Shown here piece after piece: positions 36,961-45,781 of a stretch of 64,000 nt of DNA. The position numbers and the translations under genes are program-made. Location: contig CP009479.1 of NCBI GenBank assembly GCA_000965745.1, forward strand, positions 1,440,001 through 1,504,000. The letters run 5' to 3'. Every line of letters begins with the position of its first letter. The first letter of the stretch is position 1. A model generated the notes under the pieces. That model was not told the DNA's origin. It made no database searches and saw only the letters and a list, made by a program, of their open reading frames with translations. The stretch is from an uncultured archaeon (GTDB lineage Archaea > Thermoplasmatota > Thermoplasmata > Thermoplasmatales > Thermoplasmataceae).

Positions 36961-39900
36961 ATGGAGGCCCGATTCAAATCAATACTTATGGCAGCAATAT
37001 TCCTTGCTGCTGTGCCTGCCGGGTCCTCTCTTCTTTTCTCGAATCATACGGTAACTGCAGGCGTATCGGGCCAGGGTACCGGAACAGATGGCAACATCTC
37101 TGTCGCAGATTTTCTGAACCTTCTTGGCCACAGGTCAAATGGCACAGGAAGCCTGAATTATTCTATTACCAGCTATTATCAGGCCTTATCAGAAAAATAC
37201 CCTTCTCTCTCTAATTTCTCTGGGGCACCTGCATCAAATAATGTGGAATTCCAGGAAAGCGGCCTCCCAACGAATTCAACATGGTATGTATCACTGAACG
37301 GGATGAATTACTCCACAAATGAAACGTCCCAAACCTTATCACTACCTTCCGGAACCTATAGCTATCAAGCCGGGTCCTCCAGCTCGTATATGGCAAGGAA
37401 TCCCGCCGGGAGCTTAAATGTAACAGGAACTGAACTTCAGATTAACATCAGTTTCGAATCATCCCTTTCTGTAAAATACACCCTCTCATTGAAGAACGGA
37501 ACCTTGGTGAAGGGCAACTCAGCACCTTTGAACAGTACAAATTCACCAATCGGAATTCTTAGTGACCCGGTAAACAACTACACTTACGTTACTGATTCAT
37601 CAACGAATTTAGTGTATGTTATTGATCAGTCAGGAAGCATTATTGACCGGATCACTGTCGGCCAGAACCCAAGCCAGTTAGTGTTTGACAACAATAATGG
37701 ATACATCTACGTAACCAACTCAGGCTCCAACAACGTTTCTGTCATAAATGGGTCCAACAATGTTGTTGCATCCATAAGTGTCGGCGAGTTTCCTTTTGGA
37801 ATTGCGTACGACTCCTCAAACAACTACCTCTATGTTGCAAATGTTTTTTCCAGCAGCGTTAGCATTATCGGGTCATATTCAAATAACGCCGGAGAAGTGG
37901 TTGCAAATGTTCGGCTTCCGTCGGATTTTCTTCCGTTTTCATCAGTGTATGACAAGTCTGCAGGGATGGTATACTTCTCCAACGTCAATGGTAACCAGAT
38001 TGCAGAGGTTCAGGGAACCGAGCTTGCAGGATACATTACCGTAAAAGGGTCCCCAGCCATGATGGCATACGACGGGGTGAATGGAAACGTCTACGTCACT
38101 GATGCACAGACATCTGCAAGCACAGGTTATGGCTATCTTTCTGTCATTGGGAGCAGCGGCACAGTAAAAGCGAACATAACTATCCCCGGATCTGTTAACC
38201 CATTCGGCATCACCTACGACCAGAACAGAAACCTGATCTATATTTCTGACGCAAACTCCAACCAGATGATTGTTTTCAACCCTGACAACAGCCAGTTCAT
38301 CAACAGGATAAATGTTGGTTCTGAACCATATGGGGTATCTGTGAGCCAAACAGGGAACTCTGTGGAAATATCCAATTTCAATTCCGGGACAGTCTCATTT
38401 CTGGGATATGCCGGAGCCGTCCGTGCTGTTACATTCCTGGAATCCGGCCTCCCCTCCGGGACTCCCTGGGCGGTTTCAGTCAGGAACACCAGCCTGAGCT
38501 CCTCCACCGGCAGTATAATGTTCAATGAAACTCCTGGGCATTACACCTTCAGCCCCTCACATATAGATGGCTACAAACTCGGCATAAATACAAATTCCTT
38601 CAATCTTTCAGGTAAGAATCTTGTAATCCTGGTTACATACCAGAAACTGTTTCAAGTGAACATATCTGAATCTGGCCTGTCATCAGGTTCCCCCTGGGGA
38701 TTCACCCTTGATGGGAGTACCTACAGCACCTATGCCACCTACCTCAACCTGCCTCTTGTGAATGGCACTTATTCCCTTGTGCCTTATGCCCCATCTGCAA
38801 ACTTCACAGCTGGATCTACTGATTTCACTGTAAATGGTGCGAATATTTCTGTTAACATCCAATATGTCAGGGCATACTCCCTGAACTTTACAGAGTCCGG
38901 CCTGAAAGGAGGCACCCTGTGGTCAGTTGTGGTAAATGGAACCAAGCATACCAGCCAAACCGGGACAATTCACATGATGCTTACGAAGGGGGTATACAAT
39001 TTCACGGTGCTGAATGTAAAAGGCTACTCACTATCAAACAAGACAGGTCGGGTACAGGTAACTGGAAGCTCAAATGATGTGTTCATCAAATTCAGGGCCC
39101 TGTTCAGCGTGGAGTTCATCGAGAATGGCCTTTACCCCCACACTCAATGGAATGCAACCCTGAACGGGACAAGCAGGAATGCATCAGCCGACACCATAAG
39201 TTTTCTCGCAGTTAACGGAACATACCAATTCACGCTTGGAGTGCCGGAAGGCTATCTTATTGACAGGAACAGCGGCACCGTGGAGGTTTCAGGAGCCAAT
39301 GTAACAGTCACGGTGCATTACACAAGGCTCTACAACACAACTATAACAGAAAAAGGGCTGGCAAGGGGAACAGGCTGGTGGGCAGAAATTGGCGGCTTGA
39401 ACCTCACTGGTAACGGCACTCAAATTCATTCCAGTCTGACTAATGGGACATACACGTACAAGGTCTCCAAAGTTCCGGGCTACAAGCTTGTTAACGGTTC
39501 AGGCTCCTTCACCATATCCGGGAACAAAGCATATGTCGCTGTGTCGTATGAGAAGATCTACGCAATCAGATTTGTTGAGTCAGGCCTTCCCTCTATCTAC
39601 TCATGGTCTGTCCTGTTCAATGGATCAGAATATAACATCAGGGGAAACTCCACGTTTATCCAGGCAATAAATGGGTCATACAATTACAGTATAGGATCAG
39701 TCTCACAATATGTTCCAACAAATCCTGGTGGAATAGTAAACGTATCAGGATCGAATGTTACGGTCTCCCTCACCTTCATAAAGATGATGGGCACTCTCAA
39801 CTTCACAGAGAGGAATGCGCCTGCGGGGGCGGAATGGTACATTCTCTTGAATGGAACATACTATCACTCCTCACAGAACGGCTCATTATACATTAAGGAG

Positions 39901-40512
39901 CATCAGGGCAACTACACTTATGTTGCCAACTACACTATTTACGGCCTTAACATAACAGTTCAGGGAAATGTCAGTGTAGGCTCCGGAAAAATGCAGGTAG
40001 TCATCGACTTCCCGGAACTCTACAAAGTCAAGTTCAAGGAAAACGGGCTCAGGGACAAATCCTGGTGGGCCATAAACATGAGTGGATACAGTATTTCATC
40101 CTATGGCGACAGTATCATCTTCACACTTCCAAACGGCACTTACAATTTCTCAGTTTATGATTCGTCGCATCAGAGTTTCAACGTTGTAATCCAGTACTGG
40201 GGGCAGGGGGAAGGAGACTACACGGCGTCCGCAATGGTGTCATCCAGCCATAGCGCAAGCCACATTTCTCAACCGCTTATGGTAAACGGGAAAAACATCA
40301 CTGTAAAAGTGCTGTTCAACGAATCGCACGACCACCACCACACCCGCCATCATGGATGGAGGGAGACGTTGAATTCAATCGAACAGGCAGTGATTCAGTA
40401 TGTTGTATATCTTGAAGAGGTCGTCCAGATGGCTATTTCAACCATCACTGTCTCGCTGAAAGTGTATTTCTCCATTGCAATCCCGGGCTTATCAAGCATT
40501 CCACTGTCATGA
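36961..40512 (+). CDS. Large secreted surface glycoprotein: YncE/YVTN beta-propeller plus multiple FxESGL(P)xxxxW beta-sandwich repeats
   Basis: Signal peptide; YVTN/YVAN repeats with P.GIAYD spacers; repeated ESGLP..T.W..NGTY units; many NxS/T sequons. Confidence 0.85.
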   Translation: MEARFKSILMAAIFLAAVPAGSSLLFSNHTVTAGVSGQGTGTDGNISVADFLNLLGHRSNGTGSLNYSITSYYQALSEKYPSLSNFSGAPASNNVEFQESGLPTNSTWYVSLNGMNYSTNETSQTLSLPSGTYSYQAGSSSSYMARNPAGSLNVTGTELQINISFESSLSVKYTLSLKNGTLVKGNSAPLNSTNSPIGILSDPVNNYTYVTDSSTNLVYVIDQSGSIIDRITVGQNPSQLVFDNNNGYIYVTNSGSNNVSVINGSNNVVASISVGEFPFGIAYDSSNNYLYVANVFSSSVSIIGSYSNNAGEVVANVRLPSDFLPFSSVYDKSAGMVYFSNVNGNQIAEVQGTELAGYITVKGSPAMMAYDGVNGNVYVTDAQTSASTGYGYLSVIGSSGTVKANITIPGSVNPFGITYDQNRNLIYISDANSNQMIVFNPDNSQFINRINVGSEPYGVSVSQTGNSVEISNFNSGTVSFLGYAGAVRAVTFLESGLPSGTPWAVSVRNTSLSSSTGSIMFNETPGHYTFSPSHIDGYKLGINTNSFNLSGKNLVILVTYQKLFQVNISESGLSSGSPWGFTLDGSTYSTYATYLNLPLVNGTYSLVPYAPSANFTAGSTDFTVNGANISVNIQYVRAYSLNFTESGLKGGTLWSVVVNGTKHTSQTGTIHMMLTKGVYNFTVLNVKGYSLSNKTGRVQVTGSSNDVFIKFRALFSVEFIENGLYPHTQWNATLNGTSRNASADTISFLAVNGTYQFTLGVPEGYLIDRNSGTVEVSGANVTVTVHYTRLYNTTITEKGLARGTGWWAEIGGLNLTGNGTQIHSSLTNGTYTYKVSKVPGYKLVNGSGSFTISGNKAYVAVSYEKIYAIRFVESGLPSIYSWSVLFNGSEYNIRGNSTFIQAINGSYNYSIGSVSQYVPTNPGGIVNVSGSNVTVSLTFIKMMGTLNFTERNAPAGAEWYILLNGTYYHSSQNGSLYIKEHQGNYTYVANYTIYGLNITVQGNVSVGSGKMQVVIDFPELYKVKFKENGLRDKSWWAINMSGYSISSYGDSIIFTLPNGTYNFSVYDSSHQSFNVVIQYWGQGEGDYTASAMVSSSHSASHISQPLMVNGKNITVKVLFNESHDHHHTRHHGWRETLNSIEQAVIQYVVYLEEVVQMAISTITVSLKVYFSIAIPGLSSIPLS

Positions 40513-40532
40513 TTCATTCTTCAAAAACAGGC

Positions 40533-41414
40533 TCAAAGTCCGCCCAGGATTGTAAGAAGTATGTTGTACGCTGTAACGGCTATGAAAAAGGCGTAGGAAA
40601 CAACGGATGAATAAAAGGCTAGTTTGAAGAGGATGCCCTTGTCCTTGAACAGGGATATGAGGAATGTGATGCTCAGGATAAGTATTCCAAGGACAGAGTA
40701 TATCATTACTTCCCCGCTGTAGGTGTACACATGGAACCAGTTGAATGACGGCGTCAGAAGTGACAGTGAAAAAACGCCCATAACAGTAAGCATCACCAGG
40801 GAAACTCTCTTTCTTGAGGTTCCTATAAAAAGGAACAGTGACGCAATTGTCCCCTCGAAAATCGTGATGGAAAGGACAATTATGATGGTCAGGTTAACAG
40901 TGAGGGAGGCAAAGTGGGGTATGAATATGAATATCTTCTGGTACGGCGTCAACAAGAGCAGTACTCCAGCCCATACCGCTATTGCGAAGAGGGCCGAATA
41001 TGCATCATATATGCCCCGCCTGTAGAACAGTTCAGGGAATTTTACCCTGCTGCTTGGCGCCTTGAACGCGAACCTGTTCTTTCTGACATACTCGGCGGAA
41101 GAATACAAGCTTGAGCTTTTGATGAATCCGCTTCTTAGGTCTGAACCCGGAAGGTCTGAACTTAAAGAGCCCGCAGAATGGATTATGTTCATTGTAGTTA
41201 TCCTGGCAATAACCTTCTCCAGGGAAGAAAAAAAGCTCATTCCAATGAGTTCAAAATGTGAATGGAGGGGGTTGCGAAATTGTATCAGGCTGAATTCCGG
41301 CTTGCTGTAAAACCTTCTTCTCCTCAAGTTTGAAAATACATATAATGCAACCAGTGTTGCGATTATGTATTGAGGTATAAACGATACAAGATTGTTCAGA
41401 TCCGGAGTCGGCAT
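40533..41414 (-). CDS. Polytopic membrane protein of unknown function (third gene of the secreted-subunit operon)
   Basis: N-terminal TM, basic cytoplasmic region, about 5 C-terminal TMs. Confidence 0.7.
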   Translation of the reverse strand: MPTPDLNNLVSFIPQYIIATLVALYVFSNLRRRRFYSKPEFSLIQFRNPLHSHFELIGMSFFSSLEKVIARITTMNIIHSAGSLSSDLPGSDLRSGFIKSSSLYSSAEYVRKNRFAFKAPSSRVKFPELFYRRGIYDAYSALFAIAVWAGVLLLLTPYQKIFIFIPHFASLTVNLTIIIVLSITIFEGTIASLFLFIGTSRKRVSLVMLTVMGVFSLSLLTPSFNWFHVYTYSGEVMIYSVLGILILSITFLISLFKDKGILFKLAFYSSVVSYAFFIAVTAYNILLTILGGL

Positions 41415-41464
41415 CTTACATCTTCTCCCTTATTCATCTCTTTCCCACCAACCACTCTGCCATG

Positions 41465-42097
41465 TCAGAAGATCTGTTCCGTTATTGCTATGTTGACGGT
41501 CTCATCTGTATGGACCGAGCCACCGGTGGAGTTTGCAAAGCTGACAACATTGAGACTTAGGTATACGTAGTAGTACTGGATTATTTTGCTTGAAGTGGTG
41601 TAGGGGCTGAATGATATTGAAAAATTCAATGGTGTTGAAACTCCGATCTTGACAGGAATCCCGTAGTTGGAGAGGGATCCGTTGCTGAAATTCAGTTCTA
41701 GCTGGCCGGGTGATCCTGACTGGTTGAGGTATAATTTAAGCTTTGACAGGTGAGAATTGCCACTCATCTGTGTCACTTCCACGTATGAGTAAGCATCGAC
41801 ATTGCTGTAAAGTTCCTGGGAGATGAATCCGTAGATATTCTTGGGACTGCTGGTATTCGAAAGTTTCCATGTCCCGCTCATGGATACATTTGCAACATTG
41901 CCGTAACTGTTTATCTCCACATTGGAGGAAGGAAGAGATGAGGTATTGTTGGAAAGCTGGATGAAAGGCTTCACGCTGTGAGTCTGCAGTGAGAGTTGGT
42001 TGTTAACAATAACACTGCCGTATGCCGGTATTATCATTACCAGCATTCCCGTAACGGCCAATGCAGATGCTAATGTTTTCCAGCCTGCCATCTTCAC
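41465..42097 (-). CDS. Secreted beta-rich protein, putative donor-strand filament subunit
   Basis: Sec signal ending PAYG, mature N-terminus SVIVNNQLSL..SVKP, no C-terminal anchor. Confidence 0.6.
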   Translation of the reverse strand: MKMAGWKTLASALAVTGMLVMIIPAYGSVIVNNQLSLQTHSVKPFIQLSNNTSSLPSSNVEINSYGNVANVSMSGTWKLSNTSSPKNIYGFISQELYSNVDAYSYVEVTQMSGNSHLSKLKLYLNQSGSPGQLELNFSNGSLSNYGIPVKIGVSTPLNFSISFSPYTTSSKIIQYYYVYLSLNVVSFANSTGGSVHTDETVNIAITEQIF

Positions 42098-42109
42098 CCT
42101 TACCCTAGA

Positions 42110-42646
42110 TTACAGATACTCCGACTGCAATGTCATTCTGTCATTCGTTACCTTGGCAATTGAGCCCTGTAGCACAATGCTAAGGTACAGTTTTGATGAC
42201 GAAACATGTATCGGGGCACCGGTCTGAAGCTCAGTGCCTCCCACAACATTCCCGTTCTGGTAACTCATCGGTGAACTGCTGTAGAATATCTCCACCCCGC
42301 CCGGCAGAGTGCCGTTCAGGTATATGACAACTGAACCGGTGAAGCCAGGTGATGTGGCGTTAACGATCTCAAGGGAATTAATGAGTGTAGTGTTTCCAGT
42401 GCCGGGGGTGGTGTTCAGGTACAGTGTCTGAACGCCTGTGCTCTTGGCGCCGTTCCCGGTAAGAGATAAGTAACCAAGTTGATTGGCCAGTGAGTATCCC
42501 GGGCCGTCTGCAAGGTAAACCGGGTTGCTCTGGTTTGTATTGGTATTGACGCTAACGGGGTTGTTCACTATAACAGCGGCAGTTGCTAGGGACGGGAGCA
42601 GTGCTACACTGAATATAATAAGCCCCAGGAAAGTCTTCCTTTTCAT
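42110..42646 (-). CDS. Secreted beta-rich protein, putative donor-strand filament subunit
   Basis: Sec signal ending LATA, mature N-terminus AVIVNNPVSV...NPVYL, no C-terminal anchor. Confidence 0.6.
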   Translation of the reverse strand: MKRKTFLGLIIFSVALLPSLATAAVIVNNPVSVNTNTNQSNPVYLADGPGYSLANQLGYLSLTGNGAKSTGVQTLYLNTTPGTGNTTLINSLEIVNATSPGFTGSVVIYLNGTLPGGVEIFYSSSPMSYQNGNVVGGTELQTGAPIHVSSSKLYLSIVLQGSIAKVTNDRMTLQSEYL

Positions 42647-42801
42647 ATGTATCGAGATAATTAGGCATGAGTACTATATATTATTTTGCAGTTATATTAT
42701 TCTCAAAACGCTTAACTACTACCTCTAGAAGTATGATAACGCCCCATAATTTTGTATGTCGGTGATCCATTTAATAGGGACCTTTCCATAATTAATACGA
42801 T

Positions 42802-42978
42802 ATGACTGTACTCGGTCTCTGCCATATATGCAGCGCTCCAACCAACCTTCATTGCGGACTTTGCGGCAAGCCTACCTGCAATAAGCACTTGTCGTCCATC
42901 AGGGGGATGTCGGTCTGCCCTTCGTGCAGATTGAAGTTCGAGCCGGGAGAAGGAGAAAAACGGAAGCTTATGGAATGA
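42802..42978 (+). CDS. 58-aa zinc-finger protein missed by the ORF track (CxxC-x7-CxxC-x4-CxxH-x9-CxxC)
   Basis: My translation: MTVLGLCHICSAPTNLHCGLCGKPTCNKHLSSIRGMSVCPSCRLKFEPGEGEKRKLME*. Confidence 0.8.
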   Translation: MTVLGLCHICSAPTNLHCGLCGKPTCNKHLSSIRGMSVCPSCRLKFEPGEGEKRKLME

Positions 42979-44563: not shown

Positions 44564-45781
44564 TTGAATCAGGAAATGAAGTCGGGCAGCAGTGATGGCA
44601 CGGAAGACTCGGTTGTGGACGAATCCTCAACGAAGTACGGTCAACTCCCTGTTACTGTGGCCAATCTCTGGACGTCGGCCCAGAGAAAATCAAATTCCAT
44701 TCATGAAATCTCTTACCGTGCCTGCTTCAAAGCAGAACTTCCGGAATTCTTCATAACCAGGTACTCGAATGATGGGGACGTTGTGTATGACCCCTTCATG
44801 GGCCGTGGCACCACACCCGTTGAAGCAGCGCTGAACCGCAGAATCCCATTTGGTGTGGACATAAACCCGTTGTCGGTTATTTTTGCACTTCCAAGGCTTG
44901 CCCCTCCTTCCGTTGATGAAGTTAGAAAACGGCTCATTGAAATCCCCATGGAAAGCGCCCTTCATCCAGATATAGACCTTACAATGTTTTTCCATGAAAG
45001 AACGGAGTCGGAAATCATGAGCGTGCGCAAGTACCTTTCAGACAGAAGAAAGGATGAGGCGGAGGACAAAGTGGACAGGTTCATTAGGATGGTTGCAACA
45101 AACAGGCTTACCGGGCACTCATCCGGTTTCTTTTCCGTCTATACGCTTCCACCCAACCAGGCAGCGACTCAGGAGTCTCAGGTAAGGATTAACAGAAGAC
45201 TAGGGCAGGTGCCAGTTTACAAGGATGTAAAATCCATCATCTTAAGGAAAACCAAGTCGCTTCTAAGAGACATCGACAATCAGAGTTTAAATACGCTTCG
45301 TGATTACGGCAAGAAAGCTCTCCTCGGAGTCCTTGACGCAAGGGACACGTCCTCATTGATAAAGGACGGTACGGTATCGCTGACAGTGACTTCACCCCCA
45401 TTTCTCAACATAGTCCAGTACAAGCTTGACAACTGGTTGAGGCTCTGGTTCAACGGCATAGACTTAAGCGACCGGAAAAGAGAGCCCTTTGTGACATCAA
45501 ACATGTCCCAGTGGAGTAAATTTACGGGGGAAGTATTCACTGATCTCTATCGAATTACGAAGGCAGGAGGAAGGGTAGCTTTCGAGGTTGGTGAGATCAG
45601 GAACGGCTCATTGAAACTTGAAGAGTATGTTCTGGATGCGGGGAAGAAAGCTGGTTTTGACGTTGAACGCCTGTTTATCAATTCCCAGAAATTCACAAAG
45701 ACATCAAACATATGGGGCGTAAAAAACAACAGGGACGGGACAAACACTAACAGGATAGTCCTGTTCAGAAAGGGAGGATAA
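44564..45781 (+). CDS. Amino (N4-C/N6-A) DNA methyltransferase, apparently orphan
   Basis: VYDPFMGRGTT (motif I) and VTSPPF (motif IV). Confidence 0.85.
   Translation: MNQEMKSGSSDGTEDSVVDESSTKYGQLPVTVANLWTSAQRKSNSIHEISYRACFKAELPEFFITRYSNDGDVVYDPFMGRGTTPVEAALNRRIPFGVDINPLSVIFALPRLAPPSVDEVRKRLIEIPMESALHPDIDLTMFFHERTESEIMSVRKYLSDRRKDEAEDKVDRFIRMVATNRLTGHSSGFFSVYTLPPNQAATQESQVRINRRLGQVPVYKDVKSIILRKTKSLLRDIDNQSLNTLRDYGKKALLGVLDARDTSSLIKDGTVSLTVTSPPFLNIVQYKLDNWLRLWFNGIDLSDRKREPFVTSNMSQWSKFTGEVFTDLYRITKAGGRVAFEVGEIRNGSLKLEEYVLDAGKKAGFDVERLFINSQKFTKTSNIWGVKNNRDGTNTNRIVLFRKGG

Follow-up and report, generated by a model that had tools for sequence, protein, structure and literature searches.

A conserved operon of Thermoplasmatales encodes two secreted proteins with a common mature N-terminus and a polytopic membrane protein, a candidate donor-strand fiber system

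The archaeon studied here is an uncultured, wall-less and acid-loving member of the Thermoplasmataceae. In this study, we analyzed a three-gene operon within a stretch of 64,000 nucleotides (nt) of its genome (the window; contig CP009479.1 of assembly GCA_000965745.1, positions 1,440,001 to 1,504,000 of the forward strand). The original prediction for this locus, made from the letters before any database search, described three co-directional genes for a candidate new archaeal filament system consisting of two donor-strand subunits and a membrane protein. Three open reading frames (ORFs) were indeed called at this place, all on the minus strand. Gene A (42110..42646) encodes a secreted beta-sandwich protein of 178 amino acids (aa), the proposed major subunit. 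Gene B (41465..42097) encodes a fast-evolving secreted beta protein of 208-210 aa, the proposed minor subunit, be it a cap, an adaptor or a membrane-proximal anchor. Gene M (40533..41414) encodes a 293-aa membrane protein, polytopic by hydropathy, which is proposed as anchor or assembly platform. Read from the GTG at 42097, B has 210 aa; a database protein with 100% identity has 208 aa and therefore the ATG at 42091 is probably the true start. The intergenic gap between B and M is 50 nt; that between A and B is 12 nt, or 18 nt if B starts at the ATG. The reading favored here, to which we give slightly better than even probability, is that the locus encodes a Sec-dependent donor-strand fiber of non-type-IV kind. 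Its major subunit would be A, and M would anchor it in the membrane or serve as platform, with B as a variable subunit in a minor, cap, adaptor or anchor role.

Both A and B carry signal peptides with a basic n-region, an h-region and a cleavage site of the A-x-A type (ATA/AVIVNN in A and AYG/SVIVNN in B, the slash marking the predicted cut). The n-regions, MKRK and MKMAGWK, have the standard Sec/SPI layout, and no Tat motif of the RR-x-F-L-K type was found in them. Export followed by cleavage through signal peptidase I (SPase I) past ATA and AYG, respectively, would expose x-VIVNN as the mature end. A C-terminal hydrophobic anchor is present in neither protein, and both were predicted by AlphaFold2 (AF2) to be all-beta beyond the signal helix. 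N-x-S/T sequons number five in A and nine in B, and those at residues 96 and 111 of A are kept in 15 of 16 orthologs. The description of A and B as Sec-type, anchor-less, beta-rich and sequon-rich proteins was thereby borne out. Both are likely to be N-glycosylated, and surface exposure, as a fiber would need, fits the conserved sequons together with the missing C-terminal anchor.

The layout of the signal peptides also bears on a reading in which A and B are type IV pilin-like and retain the N-terminal hydrophobic helix as filament core. Thermoplasmatales do make type IV pili (PMC12448462), and the AF2 models of A and B start with a helix followed by a beta domain. However, a class III signal site was found in none of the 16 A and 21 B orthologs, the prepilin peptidase site of the 16 A orthologs has no Gly/Ala past the basic residues (RKTF, KRSV, RKNF and the like), the h-region is ended by a canonical A-x-A site with a helix-breaking Pro, and conservation is strongest past this site and not in the helix. 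Nor was any type IV pilin among the structural matches described below, and the operon contains no assembly ATPase or platform gene. Due to the missing class III signal, the A-x-A site past the h-region and the lack of a type IV pilin match, this reading was rejected as extremely improbable. A genome scan detected true archaellin-type N-termini elsewhere in the genome.

The mature N-termini of A and B proved to be unusual within the genome. Among 7,756 six-frame ORFs (>=60 aa) of the 2.23-Mb genome, VIVNN occurs in two, which are A and B, at residues 25-29 and 29-33, respectively, and directly past the predicted cleavage sites. The proposed donor strands, which are the mature N-terminal extensions, are encoded on the minus strand at 42521..42577 (A residues 24-42, AVIVNN and onwards, then alternating I/V) and at 41963..42016 (B residues 28-45, SVIVNN and onwards). 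A looser pattern, consisting of a signal peptide and then x-V-h-[VI], was matched by 15 of 4,060 ORFs. Of these, A, B and three paralogs from a second locus are clearly secreted. The others are the two archaellins, a 490-aa protein whose single hydrophobic segment is N-terminal, and ORFs that are either membrane proteins or probably non-coding. Profile-profile alignment with hhalign of 16 A orthologs against 21 B orthologs aligned only the signal peptide and about 30 mature residues (57 columns, E 3e-9). Even without the signal peptides, the alignment started with the first mature residue of each protein (P 0.0017 and 0.00047). Among 10-residue blocks, the one at the cleavage site ranks first in conservation in A and among the top in B, and x-V-[VI]-[IV] directly past the cleavage site is kept by most members of an 80-member alignment. 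In thread homologs, the most conserved block is likewise reported to lie in the N-terminal tail (PMC9715654). The common N-terminus, which had been noticed from the letters, is thus beyond chance, and the two proteins are also correctly called otherwise divergent: full-length homology was not detected by hhalign, which matched only the N-terminal ~55 columns. Some B orthologs gave weak full-length matches with the hidden Markov model (HMM) of the A family (E 2e-7 to 3.5e-4).

AF2 models based on family alignments had a predicted local distance difference test score (pLDDT) of 86.9 for A and 75.9 for B. In both models, a coil of about 19 residues, placed outside the fold, connects the signal helix to an all-beta domain of about 11 strands. 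The mature N-terminal coil block reached a pLDDT of about 65 in A and less than 50 in B. For A, a Foldseek search yielded E < 1e-3 for two PDB chains only, namely 7pnb_A (thread) and 7ueg_A (bundling pilin). A Foldseek-independent comparison with 48,161 PDB chain representatives ranked the same chains first (7pnb_A, Z 8.2, root-mean-square deviation (rmsd) 3.7 Å, 133 residues) and second (7ueg_A, Z 8.1, rmsd 3.5 Å, 134 residues), and these two were the only chains with Z >=8. Rank 3 was taken by the Natrinema tafi pilin 9p0a_C (Z 6.3), and the next dozen matches were mostly chaperone-usher pilins. For B, 7ueg_A came first (Z 11.5, rmsd 8.2 Å, 155 aligned residues) and 7pnb_A second (Z 11.3, rmsd 7.7 Å, 156 aligned residues, tail included); the rmsd values are high because the tails were included. 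The tafi pilin 9P0A was at rank 24 for B (Z 7.2), and this score, like that of A, is at a level at which the likeness may be confined to a common arrangement. The structure-based identity to the thread chain 7PNB was 14%. TasA was not among the top 50 structural matches, which is still compatible with a distant relationship. Multimer prediction with three copies of mature A (residues 24-178, 80-row alignment) gave a median score of 0.36 versus a mark of 0.42, with controls at 0.00, a result that counts neither for nor against binding. The proposed structural comparison with donor-strand pilins came out in favor of the idea, with thread and bundling pilin as the top two for A and B. As far as the models can tell, the monomers, having their extensions outside the fold and pilins as top matches, do not look like self-complemented sandwiches unrelated to donor-strand pilins.

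At the sequence level, phmmer searches with A and B and hmmsearch with the profiles A1, A2 and A3 against all PDB chains (7PNB included) retrieved no thread, bundling pilus, tafi or TasA chain at E <=10. The only PDB matches of profile A3 were nanobody frameworks at E 0.006 or weaker, which were dismissed as spurious. A residue line-up with Saci_0406 that the original prediction had put forward found no statistical support in these searches. The likeness of A and B to the thread is structural and architectural.

This likeness covers several features of the thread of Sulfolobus acidocaldarius (major subunit Saci_0406, putative cap Saci_0405; PDB 7PNB; arCOG10215; PMC9715654), namely a Sec/SPI signal, a mature protein with a highly conserved N-terminal tail and a beta-sandwich head of about 11 strands, heavy N-glycosylation (presumed for A and B), a second co-transcribed protein with a similar tail, and no ATPase, chaperone or usher. 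For the thread, the assembly pathway was stated to be unknown, and no chaperone or usher was found (PMC9715654). Differences are the lack of detectable sequence similarity, an Asp start that is found here only in sister-cluster paralogs (DVMITG), the Sec signal of the cap candidate B, a partner that is a 6-7-transmembrane (TM) protein of a new family, and the host, which belongs to a wall-less euryarchaeal-type lineage without S-layer. The bundling pili AbpA/AbpB of Pyrobaculum calidifontis and bacterial TasA/TapA/SipW (PDB 7UEG; PMC9245690, PMC9674648) resemble A-B-M in the jelly-roll-like subunit, the N-terminal strand of which is donated there, and in the combination of a small major subunit with a variable, sometimes large second secreted protein; also, the bundling-pilus operon includes several uncharacterized multi-TM proteins. 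In contrast to these systems, A-B-M has no Peptidase_M73/TasA sequence signal, a TapA-type fold of B is not established, and a dedicated peptidase, as represented by SipW, is located in a sister cluster and not in the operon.

The third reference is provided by the haloarchaeal Tat-fimbriae (tafi), which comprise the pilins TafA/C/E, the peptidase TafD, the DUF5305 protein TafG and the anchor TafF (PDB 9P0A; PMC11821415, PMC12337348). Several pilin paralogs with donor strands, as proposed here, and an SPase I paralog with an adjoining membrane protein, as in the sister cluster, are common to both. In TafF, TM helices follow a pilin-like domain, an architecture that recalls the B-M pair and a B-M fusion found in a single genome. 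The tafi differ by Tat instead of Sec signals, by a weaker fold score than that to threads or bundling pili, and by the TafD-type peptidase, which is missing from the operon here; M is polytopic without a large ectodomain. Sec-dependent tafi relatives exist (PMC12337348). DUF1102 and DUF5305 gave no match in A, B, M and their relatives. Chaperone-usher pilins (FimA/FimG/PapE/CfaB/CsuA/B), which fill most lower-ranked structural matches, are also incomplete immunoglobulin-like or sandwich subunits with an N-terminal extension, but the single-membrane cell has no periplasmic chaperone or outer-membrane usher, and A matches them with a Z of only 5-6. Taken as a claim of novelty, a new archaeal filament system would hold for the subunit family and for M, whereas donor-strand filaments as a category were already known from archaea (PMC9715654, PMC9245690, PMC11821415, PMC12337348).

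A survey of 151 genomes from the same order as the host detected M in 37 and the A family in 52 of them, and 33 of the 37 M-bearing genomes also have an A-family member. The arrangement A-B-M is kept with adjacent genes in 20 genomes of six genera, usually convergent with a gene for a large sequon-rich repeat protein, so that the suggested check of operon conservation was positive. Mean column identity is 53% for A (16 orthologs) and 39% for B (21 orthologs). In other genera, the slot after A is filled by secreted proteins of 500-855 aa, and the 666- and 855-aa proteins carry the same N-terminal strand (e.g. SSA/TVLVHNPV and ES/DVIISNTS), as expected of tip or anchor subunits. Genomes matching Thermoplasma acidophilum and T. 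volcanium have an A-like/B-like pair apart from M, and M adjoins PheRS there. Weaker members of the A family were found in 21 of 301 genomes from other families of the phylum. An HMM search of 1.84 billion representative proteins with the A-family profile yielded 107 cluster representatives at E <=1e-3; the members looked up are unnamed or 'hypothetical' and come from Thermoplasmata. In Pfam, A and B had no match at E <=1 and 80 family members had none at E <=0.01, and A, B and M fall into no family of Pfam or NCBIfam.

The hydropathy profile of M, which agrees with the polytopic membrane protein originally predicted, comprises TM1 (residues 9-27), five or six hydrophobic segments within 135-293 and, between them, a loop of about 105 aa that opens with RRRR. 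Since the basic loops RRRR, SRKR and KDK alternate, a topology with both termini outside fits; the N-terminus of M would then face outwards, as would the loops with conserved Pro and aromatic residues. An alignment of 21 members revealed F12, W148, P157, P166, P222 and W226 as invariant and E187 as near-invariant. The motifs are N-L-x-x-F-x-P-Q-Y in the first helix and W-A-G, T-P-[YF], F-[IL]-P-H-F, I-F-E and P-S-[MF]-x-W further on, and the intervening loop is variable. A conserved set of Cys, His, Ser or Asp was not found in this alignment, and M gave no match in Pfam, NCBIfam or PDB. A word-indexed profile search for M returned 14 unnamed proteins, all of them from Thermoplasmatales-type sources and none fused. 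Membrane proteins of 195-200 aa beside distant A homologs (L046, L047) were considered as M relatives and found to be unrelated to M.

In one metagenome-assembled genome (G104, contig C11), a secreted B-like domain and M form one continuous reading frame (L015:931-2337, plus strand). The junction reads ...YAMYLE/MALHISNF..., and the M part of the fusion matches the stand-alone M of a sister genome with 36.5% identity across 282 residues (E 4e-55). In two other genomes of this genus, B and M are separate genes with a gap of 21 nt. If real, the fusion hints at an outside N-terminus of M and at a physical tie of B to M, as in TafF.

A sister cluster is located about 320 kb away in the same genome (G000:C1:1802107-1805808; L005 5108-8809, minus strand). 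On one strand, it contains genes for an SPase I-like protein (264 aa) and for an M paralog (264 aa), which matches M along its entire length (E 5e-8), as well as three tandem A-family paralogs (191, 205 and 194 aa) with the mature ends DVMITG. The cluster is followed by a gene for a 102-aa membrane protein, and its upstream neighbors encode a TM/coiled protein of 207 aa and an actin/ParM-like protein. The peptidase-like gene has the boxes SESMEHS and IIIHR and scored 20.8 bits with TIGR02228, which is below the curated cut-off. According to searches with TIGR02228, Peptidase_S24 and Peptidase_S26 it would have been the only SPase I of the genome, but a protein search found a second, solitary paralog (G000:C1:1137879-1138649, plus strand) with 51% identity to the cluster-linked copy. 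These models missed the solitary copy, and these archaeal peptidases are thus poorly covered by curated models. A further weak A-family match (E 1.9e-7), at G000:C1:1820658-1821110 (plus strand; L048 2970-3740), lies in a 256-aa ORF about 17 kb from the sister cluster.

Within the flanks read, an extra SPase I copy is located near an M paralog and/or subunit paralogs in at least five genera (g1, g15, g14, g4, g11), including the genomes matching Thermoplasma acidophilum and T. volcanium (g4), and in at least three genera the M paralog directly adjoins the extra SPase I with gaps of tens of nucleotides. In an SPase I tree, cluster-linked copies from g1 and g15 group in a supported clade (100/96), those from the Thermoplasma-matching genomes (g4) in a second one, and the solitary copy of the same genomes belongs to neither clade. 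The sister clusters parallel the tapA-sipW-tasA arrangement and the position of tafD in tafi loci (PMC9245690, PMC11821415). No SipW-like peptidase gene was found in the A-B-M operon or within +/-1.5 kb of 19 orthologous loci. The statement that no such peptidase is adjacent therefore holds for the operon and its orthologs, but it overlooks the sister cluster with its SPase paralog in the same genome.

A different reading is that M, as an unrecognized membrane enzyme or sorting factor, reads the conserved mature N-terminus as a processing or sorting signal, and that this end does not act as donor strand. M might modify the N-terminus, attach it covalently, or help the peptidase, as was proposed for the tafi membrane protein TafG and the peptidase TafD (PMC11821415). 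Such a role would agree with conservation peaking exactly at the cleavage site, with M paralogs directly adjoining the extra signal peptidase in at least three genera, and with the near-invariant Glu inside a membrane helix and the invariant Pro and Trp residues in predicted outward loops of M. However, M has no conserved Cys/His/Ser/Asp set like sortases, archaeosortases, CPBP or rhomboid proteases and matches no family, the A-B-M operon and its orthologs contain M without a peptidase, and the pilin-like folds would be left unexplained. We consider this reading quite improbable; it is also compatible with fiber assembly rather than an alternative to it.

According to the favored reading of a donor-strand fiber, A and B would be exported and each mature protein would consist of a beta-sandwich head behind a free N-terminal extension of about 19 residues. 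This extension would slot as a strand into the sheet of the next subunit and thereby link the conserved A subunits head to tail. B combines the same strand with a different, fast-evolving head and may therefore sit at an end of the polymer, where it would serve as cap, adaptor or anchor near the membrane. M would hold or nucleate the fiber at the bare membrane of cells that have no S-layer, and B and M together are possibly a split version of the tafi anchor TafF. The operon, the free N-terminal extensions, the pilin-like models and the linkage of M to the A family (33/37 genomes) speak for the non-type-IV filament with two subunit types and an anchor or assembly factor that was originally predicted, whereas polymerization itself is something we infer.

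Several observations weigh against the fiber. The core of B is nearly as close to the self-sufficient lectin domains of FmlH/FimH (Z ~10, rmsd 3.1 Å), so that its acceptor groove is only putative and the modeled core may be a complete domain. The Z of about 8 for A is middling for a beta-sandwich, and sandwiches of such type are common. Sequence-level homology to thread, AbpA, TasA or tafi pilins was not detected, Peptidase_M73, DUF1102 and DUF5305 gave no match, and the hallmark N-terminus of the thread, Asp followed by YYY (with an isopeptide to Asn of subunit n-2 in the thread), is absent from A and B with their mature ends AVIVNN and SVIVNN. M is not adjacent to the subunits in Thermoplasma and two other genera. 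The B-M fusion comes from a single metagenome-assembled genome, the start codon of its B part is ambiguous and an assembly error is possible. Finally, no thread-like filament was reported in two Thermoplasmatales examined by cryo-electron microscopy (PMC12448462).

The latter study described, by cryo-tomography, a dense irregular protein coat and only type IV pili and archaella as filaments (PMC12448462). A and B could accordingly be non-polymerizing parts of this unordered, ~20-nm 'exterior protein layer' that replaces the S-layer. They might be held by M and/or the neighboring giant glycoprotein, with the N-terminal strand serving as docking peptide for this partner and not for a further subunit. 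The convergent neighbor of the operon is indeed a gene for a large sequon-rich repeat protein (1069-1635 aa) in many genera. Within the window, this gene (36961-40512, plus strand) encodes 1183 aa. The protein has a signal peptide and a hydrophobic tail at its C-terminus, contains YVTN beta-propeller repeats (TIGR02276) as well as an F-x-E-x-G-L-P-x-G-x-x-W module that is repeated about eight times, carries 55 sequons, and is a candidate component of the exterior protein layer of Thermoplasmatales. The heavy sequon decoration of A and B and the resemblance of the B core to complete lectin-type domains would also suit a coat. On the other hand, the best structural matches of A and B are filament subunits and not coat proteins, a free conserved N-terminal strand across tandem paralogs is the signature of strand-donating polymers, and the sister clusters have a dedicated peptidase, as fiber systems do. 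The giant neighbor was also considered as a carrier of the donor-strand motif and rejected, as its N-terminus, SLLFSNH, is vaguely similar within the genus and not kept beyond it, which speaks against a coat as well. Altogether, we regard the coat as unlikely.

Donor-strand fibers have been recognized in archaea only from 2022 onwards, as threads, bundling pili, tafi and cannulae, and to our knowledge the machinery for assembly and anchoring of threads and bundling pili is unknown. The locus described here adds a subunit family that is unrelated in sequence, in a lineage without cell wall or S-layer, where a fiber must be held by the membrane alone. It is of interest for this family and for the host lineage, and most of all for M, a conserved candidate for anchoring or assembly with a paralog beside a dedicated signal peptidase and a natural fusion to a subunit-like domain in one genome. 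A further-reaching proposal, which we put forward tentatively and consider rather doubtful as a whole, is that M is the first identified dedicated anchor or platform of an archaeal donor-strand fiber, that B is its detachable pilin-like adaptor (a split TafF), and that Thermoplasmatales including Thermoplasma acidophilum make two related fibers, one from the operon and one from the peptidase-linked sister cluster. Cultivated Thermoplasma species are classic subjects of cryo-tomography, and with homologs in the genomes matching them the fiber prediction is directly testable.

The remaining features of the locus concern its borders. A TATA-like AT-rich box, AAAATAATATATAG on the coding strand (42674..42687, minus strand), was read about 34 nt upstream of the A start, within a spacer of ~155 bp between gene A and a divergent 58-aa ORF; by analogy with archaeal promoter architecture, it is presumed to be the operon promoter. 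At the other end, a 20-bp spacer (40513..40532) separates the stop codons of M and of the convergent 1183-aa gene, and a T5 run on the minus strand is a possible terminator. The upstream side of the operon is formed by the PheRS alpha gene and the small divergent Cys-rich ORF. This 58-aa ORF (42802-42978, plus strand) is located between PheRS alpha and A, has three C-x-x-C pairs and probably encodes a zinc ribbon; its end overlaps the end of the PheRS gene by 11 nt. Further along the window, a 405-aa ORF (44564-45781, plus strand) has a TSPPF motif and a Rossmann-like stretch D-P-F-M-G-R-G-T-T and appears to be DNA methyltransferase-like.

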